Shown: positions 58,175 through 58,481 of the stretch, piece by piece
Layout of the letters: each line of letters starts with the position of its first letter
Position numbering within the stretch: position 1 is the stretch's first letter
Source: Clostridium sp. CAG:567
GTDB taxonomy: Bacteria > Bacillota > Clostridia > TANB77 > CAG-508
DNA length: 64,000 nt
NCBI GenBank assembly: GCA_000437855.1
Contig: FR902206.1
Location: 5,080 to 69,079 of the forward strand
Reading direction: 5' to 3'
Translations under genes and position numbers: made by a program
The notes under the pieces: generated by a model
The model's input: only the letters and a program-made list of their open reading frames with translations
Database searches by the model: none
What the model was told of the DNA's origin: nothing

Positions 58175-58481
58175 GGGCAGATGGCCGAGTGGCTAAAGGC
58201 GGCAGACTGTAGACTTTGGTTCAAACAAAGAATCAGAAATTGCAGCTCATACAAGTGATTGTATGATGAAAACCGGGCTAATTCGGGGAAGTCTTAACAG
58301 GTTAAGCTGATGATAATCCCGAGCTAGAAAGAAATTTCGAGTGTAGAGACTTTATACCTGGTATCTTATCAAGATAAAGAGAAAGTCCAGACTACAAACA
58401 TTTCGATGGTAGTGAAAACTATAGTAGTAAGAAATCTGTTCTCGTACGAGTACGATGGTTCGAATCCATCTCTGCCCACCA
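58175..58481 (+). tRNA. tRNA-Tyr (GTA), class II, interrupted in the anticodon loop by a group I intron
   Basis: Exon 1 is 58175-58210 and exon 2 is 58432-58481. Joined, they give acceptor GGGCAGA/TCTGCCC, anticodon stem GCAGA/TCTGT, loop CT-GTA-AA, long variable arm CTCGTACGAG, GGTTCGAATCC and CCA. Confidence 0.85.
58211..58431 (+). ncRNA. group I intron (IC3-like, ORF-less, ~221 nt)
   Basis: It follows an exon-terminal U and ends in G. It contains AAUCCCGAGCUA (58315-58326), GUGUAGAGACU (58341-58351), AAAGAGAAAGUCC (58376-58388) and a GAAA-capped hairpin near the 3' end, all reminiscent of tRNA-Leu/tRNA-Ile group I intron cores. Confidence 0.75.

Follow-up and report, generated by a model that had tools for sequence, protein, structure and literature searches.

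A split tRNA-Tyr gene with a probable IC3 group I intron and a putative homing endonuclease gene beside it in gut Clostridia

Can a tRNA gene that routine scans do not see be a working gene, interrupted by a ribozyme, and what is an endonuclease gene doing directly behind it? This question is raised by positions 58175–58481 of a 64,000-nt stretch of Clostridium sp. CAG:567 DNA (GenBank assembly GCA_000437855.1, contig FR902206.1, positions 5,080–69,079, forward strand; the whole stretch is hereafter the window, and coordinates are counted from its first letter). There, a tRNA-Tyr gene is interrupted in its anticodon loop by a 221-nt insert and is followed at a short distance by a gene of an endonuclease family. 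All features lie on the plus strand unless stated otherwise. In our assessment, the locus is best explained as a functional split tRNA-Tyr gene carrying a group I intron of the IC3 (bacterial tRNA-intron) type, the endonuclease gene being proposed as its former means of spread; we give this explanation as a whole a probability of about 0.85.

A tRNA-Tyr gene in two exons

The 5' exon (58175–58210) contributes the acceptor arm, the D arm, the 5' half of the anticodon stem and the loop nucleotides C32, U33, G34 and U35, so that its 3' end is a U. The 3' exon (58432–58481) resumes with A36, A37 and A38 and supplies the 3' half of the anticodon stem, the long variable arm, the T arm, the acceptor strand and CCA. 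When the two are joined, ARAGORN recognizes an 86-nt class II tRNA-Tyr(GUA) with an acceptor stem of GGGCAGA/TCTGCCC, a long variable arm, a T arm and an encoded CCA, which bears out an earlier note on this DNA that had described the joined exons as a flawless class II tRNA-Tyr(GTA). The intron-aware tRNA search that the same note had named as a check, carried out here by ARAGORN with introns allowed on the genomic sequence, returns tRNA-Tyr(gta) i(37,221).

The insert thus comprises 221 nt (58211–58431) between U35 and A36 of the anticodon loop. Read from the sequence, two splits alone can restore the loop CUGUAAA. The split CUGU|A...AAG|AAAUC (bars mark splice sites) is the sole option in which the 5' exon ends in U and the intron ends in G, the two boundary features to which the note had drawn attention. 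The alternative split, CUGUA|...A|AAUC, was rejected, as it leaves A and A at the boundaries and breaks the U/G rule.

This gene escapes routine annotation. On the 64-kb window, default ARAGORN calls tRNA-Glu(CTC) at 42768–42842 and tRNA-Met(CAT) at 58059–58135 only, and a whole-window Rfam scan at gathering thresholds likewise finds the tRNA-Glu and tRNA-Met genes and neither the intron nor the tRNA-Tyr. A second tRNA-Tyr within the window was detected by ARAGORN neither by default nor with introns allowed.

The split arrangement is also found in 12 species genomes, in 13 metagenome contigs and in 18 further contigs, and the intron is present in ten out of ten strain neighbourhoods of the window's own species (upstream protein 100% identical). 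No uninterrupted tRNA-Tyr was found in the retrieved gut-Clostridia loci, the flanks of which are short. The homologues comprise 13 distinct mature tRNA-Tyr sequences, in which the acceptor, anticodon, variable and T stems are all preserved through compensatory changes.

Fold and splicing of the insert

In a local scan of 461 nt, the Rfam group I intron model RF00028 matches 58207–58407 over its full length (model positions 1–253) with 35.9 bits (E 1.3e-7); the match is lost in an E-value scan of the whole window and is recovered in the local scan only. The covariance-model check put forward in the earlier note therefore came out in part, with a match present locally and the gathering threshold of 50 not reached. 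The Rfam seeds include no bacterial ones, and a cut-off of 18–20 bits was used in the catalogue of Williams (bioRxiv 2020, doi 10.1101/2020.01.27.920355). Since the score was sub-threshold, the fold was examined by comparison.

Homologues were collected in two ways. An exact 37-nt core string was searched in a genome collection and gave 18 species genomes, all of uncultured gut Clostridia and including Clostridium sp. CAG:508, these first 18 loci being biased to identical P6-P7 by the exact search; a gapped P7...J8/7-P7' pattern, which fixes P7 and J8/7, gave at least 120 viral and at least 120 metagenome contigs. From these, 37 distinct sequences were aligned with MAFFT, 24 from tRNA-Tyr (67–96% identical to the window intron) and 13 from tRNA-Thr(UGU) (55–79% identical). 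A P1–P9 structure was written from the window sequence and its pairs were counted on the 37 rows, with slid partners and 500 column shuffles as controls.

The structure is strongly upheld by this comparison. Paired cells amount to 92.8%, as against 35–39% with slid partners; 38 of the 68 pairs change on both sides (13–17 in the slid controls); and the covariation score is 0.277 (0.03–0.08 in the slid controls). All 500 column shuffles fell short of the observed value in every measure. Several pairs that change on both sides are found in each of P2, P3, P5a, P6a, P8, P9a and P9b, and one each in P5 and P9, so that the consistent P3–P8 fold on which the earlier note had staked its assignment is amply present. 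Thermodynamic folding alone recovers P1, P2, P4-P5a, P8 and P9b, with z = –2.2 relative to shuffled sequences. Together, the covariation of the fold and its recurrence establish that the split arrangement is not a chance one, and the insert (58211–58431, without an internal open reading frame (ORF)) is very probably a genuine and spliced group I intron of IC3 type.

At the 5' end of the intron, P1 (58207–58245) pairs the exon end and the first intron bases, CUGU|AG (58207–58212), with the guide UUGCAG (58240–58245), which places a U58210·G58242 wobble at the splice site, and encloses a P1a extension hairpin (58214–58230). Five to six of the six pairs form in all 24 Tyr rows, the A-U pair beside the splice site is replaced by G·U in six of them, and UUGCAG is found in 23 of the 24 tRNA-Tyr homologues (UUGCAC in L238). 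The tRNA-Thr relatives have a 10-bp P1 in which a G-C pair has switched to A-U in a compensatory manner. The guide GCAG (58242–58245) and its U·G wobble, offered only tentatively before, are thus substantiated by P1 pairing in both host tRNAs. The AA of the 3' exon may form P10 with U58240–U58241. P2 (58248–58265; CAUACAA/UUGUAUG) is a hairpin with a GNRA-type GUGA loop, in which six of seven pairs change on both sides; in the Tyr rows the loop reads GUGA, GUAA, GAAA or GGAA.

In the core, P3 (58272–58362) is formed by ACCGGG (58272–58277) and CCUGGU (58357–58362) and encloses P4–P6 and the 5' strand of P7. It is paired in 94.6% of cells, with both-side changes in five of its six pairs and variants such as CCGGG/CCUGG, CAUCG/CGAUG and CACCG/CGGUG. 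The P4-P5-P6 domain (58283–58342) consists of P4 (58283–58287 with 58318–58322), which is 100% paired and nearly invariant, P5/P5a (58292–58313) and the GAAA-capped P6/P6a (58323–58342), with both-side changes in P5, P5a and P6a. P5 carries the receptor-like motif UCUUAAC/GAUGA, which may accept the GAAA loop of P9b. P7 (58346–58388) joins G58346 and GACUU (58348–58352) to AAGUCC (58383–58388) around a bulged A58347, and is identical to the IC3 consensus GUAGAGACU...AGUCC of published seeds. P8 (58363–58375), in which four of five pairs change on both sides, is followed by J8/7 (58376–58382). The P7 and J8/7-P7' strings of the window, GUAGAGACU ... AAGAGAAAGUCC, correspond to GUAGAGACUA ... 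AAGGGAUAGUCC in the IC3 seeds, an agreement of sequence only, and the J8/7-P7' string is identical to that of the seed Sba135.Met.2Ug. The P4/P6, P7 and J8/7-P7' core strings that the earlier note had cited accordingly match the IC3 tRNA-intron consensus of the published seed alignment.

The 3' part of the intron is a three-way junction (58391–58428) of P9 (ACUAC/GUAGU), P9a (CAU-UUCG-AUG) and P9b (GUAGU-GAAA-ACUAU), followed by the intron end AAG. Its helices are paired in 97–100% of cells and change on both sides in one of five, three of three and four of five pairs, respectively, and the GAAA of L9b is invariant. The terminal guanosine, omega G, is G58431, and a G likewise closes the intron in all the Tyr and Thr homologues, at a splice site consistent with the U/G rule. 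In the tRNA-Thr relatives, a GAAA loop L2 is accompanied by a canonical CCUAAG...UAUGG receptor in P8; in the Tyr introns, a variable GNRA loop is accompanied by a plain P8. This pattern fits the L2-P8 contact expected of IC3 introns, in which the two elements may dock.

Taking the established group I pathway as a model, we infer a standard two-step, guanosine-initiated transesterification. The tRNA-Met/tRNA-Tyr pair would be transcribed from the promoter-like site at 58012–58040 (TTGACA-17-TATACT, matching the consensus at 11 of 12 positions and the best such site in the region by consensus scan), and the intron would fold into P1–P9. The guide UUGCAG would pair with the exon end CUGU and the first intron bases, setting U58210·G58242 at the 5' splice site, whereupon a free guanosine bound in P7 would attack after U58210. 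The AA of the 3' exon would then pair with the two U's of the guide and G58431 would enter the guanosine site, so that the freed 5' exon could attack after G58431, restoring the loop CUGUAAA and releasing the intron.

Two points tell against the assignment as an IC3 intron. The RF00028 score of 35.9 bits falls short of the Rfam gathering threshold, and P7 and J8/7, being fixed by the search pattern, lie beyond the covariation test: P7 is invariant in the aligned set partly because the pattern demanded it, and covariation is thus uninformative there. It is unlikely, although some features favour it, that the intron is genuine and that "self-splicing" overstates the case because a host protein or RNA chaperone is needed. 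The intron is very A+U-rich (37% G+C in the RF00028 match region), several helices are short (5 bp in P8, 3 bp in P9a, 2 bp in P5), the minimum-free-energy fold is only modestly better than that of shuffles, and protein-assisted splicing is known for other group I introns (PMC3984707). Set against these features, the complete IC3 core and the peripheral elements are present and covary. Unaided splicing in vitro is known for small IC3 tRNA introns, those of Azoarcus and Anabaena among them, which also weighs against a need for assistance. That the gene is a dead, interrupted tRNA-Tyr pseudogene and that another, intact tRNA-Tyr serves the cell is very improbable. Such a reading could draw on the fact that the copy number of tRNA-Tyr is judged from 64 kb of the genome only and that expression is deduced; it is opposed by structure-preserving selection on exons and intron across at least 24 distinct sequences and by the retention of the locus in every strain and species examined. 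The preserved tRNA stems, the near-consensus promoter-like site upstream and the intron in all ten strain neighbourhoods argue against a pseudogene as well. Long-intron ARAGORN searches do yield false "ghost" exons (Williams, doi 10.1101/2020.01.27.920355), but the idea that the split tRNA is a chance product of intron-tolerant searching is refuted by the independent covariance-model match inside the called intron and by its recurrence in dozens of genomes with covariation, and retains a negligible probability.

The endonuclease gene behind the tRNA

A free-standing gene for a 128-aa protein (58550–58936) begins 68 nt after the tRNA-Tyr, on the same strand and with its own ribosome-binding site. 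The protein belongs to the I-Ssp6803I family of PD-(D/E)XK endonucleases and is a putative homing endonuclease: it scores 65.5 bits with Pfam PF11645 (cut-off 26.1), aligns with PDB 2OST at E 1.5e-4 with the YDL and QVK motifs in register, and matches "HEase" of PADLOC at E 9e-7. The description of the intron as ORF-less in the earlier note holds in that the intron has no internal ORF, but was incomplete, as an endonuclease-family gene stands 68 nt past the 3' exon.

The distribution of this gene among relatives is patchy. Of 24 distinct tRNA-Tyr intron loci, 11 have it intact in this place, the rest being without the ORF or with remnants of it: one locus has lost exactly the ORF (L006), another lacks 1.1 kb (L016), a third retains fragments (L009), and in a locus of a different lineage (L220) only the two ends of the ORF are left. 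Of the ten strain neighbourhoods that represent the window's own species, three have an intact ORF, six share a 262-nt internal deletion corresponding to window positions 58582–58843 (L272–L274, L276–L278), and one (L269) carries a serine-recombinase element. Where the ORF is intact, its protein is strongly conserved. Furthermore, three homologues of 70–72% identity were fetched by protein similarity alone, and in all eight places with upstream DNA the gene follows a split tRNA-Tyr; these eight places span two different genomic neighbourhoods. Such sporadic presence, absence and degeneration among collinear alleles is what marks a homing endonuclease gene. An intron-encoded location, which is typical of the I-Ssp6803I type, is not found here, as the ORF lies outside both the intron and the tRNA.

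We put at even odds the proposal, drawn from these sequence features, that the 128-aa protein is a free-standing homing endonuclease that mobilized the intron in trans. It would have cut the intron-less tRNA-Tyr gene (…GGCGGCAGACTGTAAATCTGTTCTC…) in the palindromic DNA of its anticodon arm, and repair from an intron-bearing copy would have carried over the intron, the 3' exon and the endonuclease gene together, that is, by collaborative homing. The target of I-Ssp6803I is 23 bp long and pseudo-palindromic (PMC3384342), so that the palindromic anticodon arm of an intron-less tRNA-Tyr would be its natural equivalent. With the intron now fixed in the lineage, the endonuclease gene would be decaying in many strains.

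A close known counterpart is the tRNA-fMet intron of Synechocystis PCC 6803 with I-Ssp6803I (2OST), which likewise combines an anticodon-loop group I intron with a PF11645 PD-(D/E)XK endonuclease. By comparison, the gene of the window lies outside the intron and the tRNA, 68 nt downstream and with its own ribosome-binding site, and its protein is only weakly similar to 2OST (E 1.5e-4). Ten further loci (L029, L037, L055, L143, L153, L167, L170, L175, L176 and L183) have distant PF11645-like ORFs that closely precede the P7 core and share its strand. Their position directly 5' of P7 indicates that these ORFs probably lie inside their introns, as for I-Ssp6803I; the host tRNAs of these long introns were not resolved by ARAGORN. 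Collaborative homing has reportedly been described in phages, for a cyanophage psbA intron with F-CphI and in T-even phages (Zeng, Bonocora and Shub 2009; Bonocora and Shub 2009). The likeness is in an ORF-less intron, a free-standing endonuclease gene beside the interrupted gene and a patchy presence among strains; the difference is that the phage cases concern phage protein-coding genes, whereas the present one concerns a bacterial chromosomal tRNA gene and is known from sequence.

Several observations weigh against the homing proposal. Relatives show no intron-less tRNA-Tyr allele, and hence no empty target site: in a search for such alleles through the upstream 280-aa protein, all ten neighbourhoods carried the intron, the listed matches being at least 89% identical. 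Because the intron is fixed in the clade, its association with the endonuclease gene does not discriminate between explanations. The loci that form the wider pattern described below were gathered through searches for the intron. In these loci, 35 of 614 uninterrupted tRNAs also have a nuclease-like ORF behind them; the figure for split tRNAs is 62 of 187, about six times as high, in a rough comparison that is partly circular since the reference set came from split tRNAs.

The main rival to homing in trans is that the endonuclease is unrelated to the intron: a selfish or other nuclease would have landed at the 3' flank of the tRNA-Tyr, as free-standing nucleases do in phage tRNA arrays, and the intron would be old, immobile and vertically inherited. 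This has an appreciable probability, short of even. The intron is fixed in ten of ten strain variants while the ORF comes and goes, the serine-recombinase element of L269 has inserted 1 nt after the same tRNA, and nuclease-like ORFs stand behind uninterrupted tRNAs as well. Its difficulties are that the ORF belongs to the family of I-Ssp6803I, an enzyme whose gene lies within a tRNA-fMet group I intron and homes together with it; that nuclease ORFs are about sixfold enriched behind split tRNAs, within the limits of that control; and that this position is taken, behind three different split tRNAs, by nucleases of three unrelated families.

Relatives, surroundings and meaning

The second of these split tRNAs is a tRNA-Thr(UGU), which holds a sister intron after U36 (UUGU|AA) in six genomes (L001, L007, L010, L014, L015 and L017) and in metagenomes (L145, L201, L241, L253, L257 and others). 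The Thr and Tyr introns have an identical 37-nt P4'-P6-P7 core and are 55–79% identical overall, their insertion sites share UGU|AA only, and no genome in the set yielded both. These features suggest that the intron jumped from one tRNA gene to another, perhaps through reverse splicing. Behind the split tRNA-Thr, a 128-aa HNH gene follows at 55–140 nt in nine loci (L001, L010, L014, L017, L145, L201, L241, L253 and L257), and a remnant of it in L007. Its product, taken from L145 (55–440 downstream), scores 22.9 bits with PF01844 (cut-off 21.4), a family unrelated to PD-(D/E)XK.

The pattern extends to viral DNA. Split tRNAs account for 61 of the 120 IMG/VR viral-contig matches listed (L019–L138), namely Arg-TCT (32), Leu-TAA (13), Phe-GAA (7), Thr-TGT (3) and others. 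Among the matches listed, a 156-aa HNH_2 gene is found 47 nt downstream in 24 Arg(UCU) loci, of which 21 are viral, and one tRNA-Arg(UCU) intron locus has a GIY-YIG gene in place of HNH_2. Split tRNA-Arg genes on viral contigs are exemplified by L028:3866–4144 and L026:677–954; of these two inspected contigs, L026 has ribonucleotide reductase and primase genes and L028 a tRNA array, which are phage-type features. On one metagenome contig (L197:4188–4566, minus strand), a split Arg-ACG and a split Asn-GTT lie about 300 nt apart, both with introns of this core type. BLAST of the locus against 50,697 phage records gave tRNA-Met-like matches and one 93-nt core match, and no close phage relative. 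That one match is in Pelagibacter phage HTVC120P (MH598807.1, 19714–19807), which is 75% identical to window positions 58341–58433, the P7-P3'-P8-P7' core; the stretch is annotated within a capsid protein gene and may be an unannotated group I intron in it.

We tentatively propose, while leaning slightly to the doubtful side, that ORF-less anticodon-loop introns are commonly one half of a two-part mobile element, the other half being a free-standing endonuclease gene 50–140 nt past the tRNA. On that proposal, the Tyr and Thr introns may have diverged through a jump between loops, for example by reverse splicing, and each may have recruited a different endonuclease.

With regard to known tRNA introns, reviews (including PMC3984707) name tRNA-Leu, tRNA-fMet, tRNA-Ile and tRNA-Arg as the bacterial hosts. 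The scan of 80,413 bacterial and 1,028 archaeal assemblies by Williams (doi 10.1101/2020.01.27.920355) raised these four classical settings to 21, with 5,292 intron-split tRNAs, and its seeds include Mba143.Tyr.4Ug, Thr.5Ug and other settings. The remark of the earlier note that it was not aware of an intron in the tRNA-Tyr of a low-GC Firmicute is therefore outdated: with Tyr.4Ug in the 2020 seed alignment, the window intron is a well-supported member of a catalogued setting and not a new kind of host gene. That preprint is a computational catalogue in which adjacent endonuclease genes go unmentioned. New here are the comparative proof of the fold, the fixation of the intron in the species and its presence in many related gut Clostridia, the sister intron in tRNA-Thr(UGU), and the endonuclease gene beside an ORF-less intron.

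The seed Mba143.Tyr.4Ug agrees with the window intron in its tRNA-Tyr host, in the insertion at CUGU|AAA (loop position 4) with U before the intron and G at its end, in the guide UUGCAG and in a very similar P1'-P2 (AAUUGCAGCUC.UA.AAG..AUU.UA.GAUGAA). It differs in its core, which reads AACGGUG/ACCGUGG where the window intron has the classical UUCGGGG/CCCGAG, and in a single P9 hairpin where the window intron has a three-way junction. In pairwise comparison, Mba143.Tyr.4Ug has the 5' end in common with the window intron, and the Met.2Ug, fMet.2Ug and Leu.3Ug seeds have the core and the P9 junction in common with it. Like the classical IC3 introns (cyanobacterial tRNA-Leu(UAA) and tRNA-fMet; Azoarcus tRNA-Ile(CAU)), it is an anticodon-loop insertion of about 200–250 nt, has the common core strings AAUUCGGGGAA, AAUCCCGAGC, GUAGAGACU and AGUCCAGAC, a GAAA-capped P9 element and a GNRA loop on P2, and with the Leu, fMet and Met seeds it shares a P9 three-way junction of the ACCAC...GCAGCGAAAGCUGU...GUGGUAAG type. 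Unlike them, it interrupts a tRNA-Tyr at position 35/36 (34/35 for Leu) in a low-GC gut Clostridia bacterium, has a continuous GAAA-capped hairpin as P6 (classically GCC-AAG...AA-GGU) and a U-A pair closing P7 (A-U in the classical seeds), and is known here from its sequence alone, with an RF00028 score of only 35.9 bits.

In the immediate surroundings, the uninterrupted tRNA-Met(CAT) (58059–58135; ARAGORN, and RF00005 at 71.5 bits) lies 39 nt upstream of the tRNA-Tyr, and the Met-Tyr order is maintained in related loci. Immediately after the CCA, an A+T-rich 9-bp hairpin (AAAACAAGU/ACUUGUUUU, 58482–58506) can be read from the sequence; its stem is preserved in relatives while its loops differ, and it is a possible terminator. 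A terminator scan of the tRNA-Tyr region called none, passing over this hairpin because it has only two G-C pairs. In L269, identity to the window ends 1 nt after the tRNA-Tyr CCA (L269:3895 onward, corresponding to window position 58482), and the different segment that follows encodes a 90-aa protein and a 641-aa serine recombinase with Resolvase/Recombinase domains; it looks like an integrative element that uses the 3' end of the tRNA-Tyr. Two sub-threshold Rfam matches lie antisense to the tRNA genes, RF04351 (Plastid-psbI-rps4) on the tRNA-Tyr 3' exon (58431–58478, minus strand) and RF04354 (Plastid-ycf2) on the tRNA-Met (58059–58133, minus strand); these plastid untranslated-region models seem to contain antisense tRNA sequence. 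Further upstream (49120–57930) are ordinary housekeeping genes for trigger factor, ClpP, ClpX, LexA, MreB and an AMP-dependent ligase, together with the 280-aa protein, which has no Pfam family. The latter is found on at least 1,000 contigs, the species being very abundant in public gut metagenomes. Beyond the endonuclease gene, up to 61749, are a small helix-turn-helix-like ORF on the minus strand (58962–59222), a transglycosylase and an MFS transporter.

The small, A+U-rich IC3 ribozyme with its three-way P9 junction adds to the compact ribozymes for RNA circularization and engineering. If the two-part element is real, it would capture, in bacteria, a stage that has been proposed as intermediate in the way mobile introns arose. 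Phage-borne tRNA genes would then also be shown to carry group I introns, contrary to the 2014 review, in which the phage introns then known were all in protein genes (PMC3984707). The relatives form a natural series, in which the same intron occurs with an intact, a deleted or an absent neighbouring endonuclease and a tRNA-Thr sister has a different one; this series could serve to test the mobilization of ORF-less introns in trans and the first pairing of endonuclease genes with introns. The tRNA-Tyr gene and its intron are invisible to default ARAGORN and to Rfam scans at gathering thresholds, and since intron-unaware tools overlook the gene, genomes of this abundant human-gut Clostridia lineage may look devoid of tRNA-Tyr. 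If the split gene is the only tRNA-Tyr, all decoding of tyrosine codons in the organism would rest on the activity of a ribozyme, and the intron would be essential.

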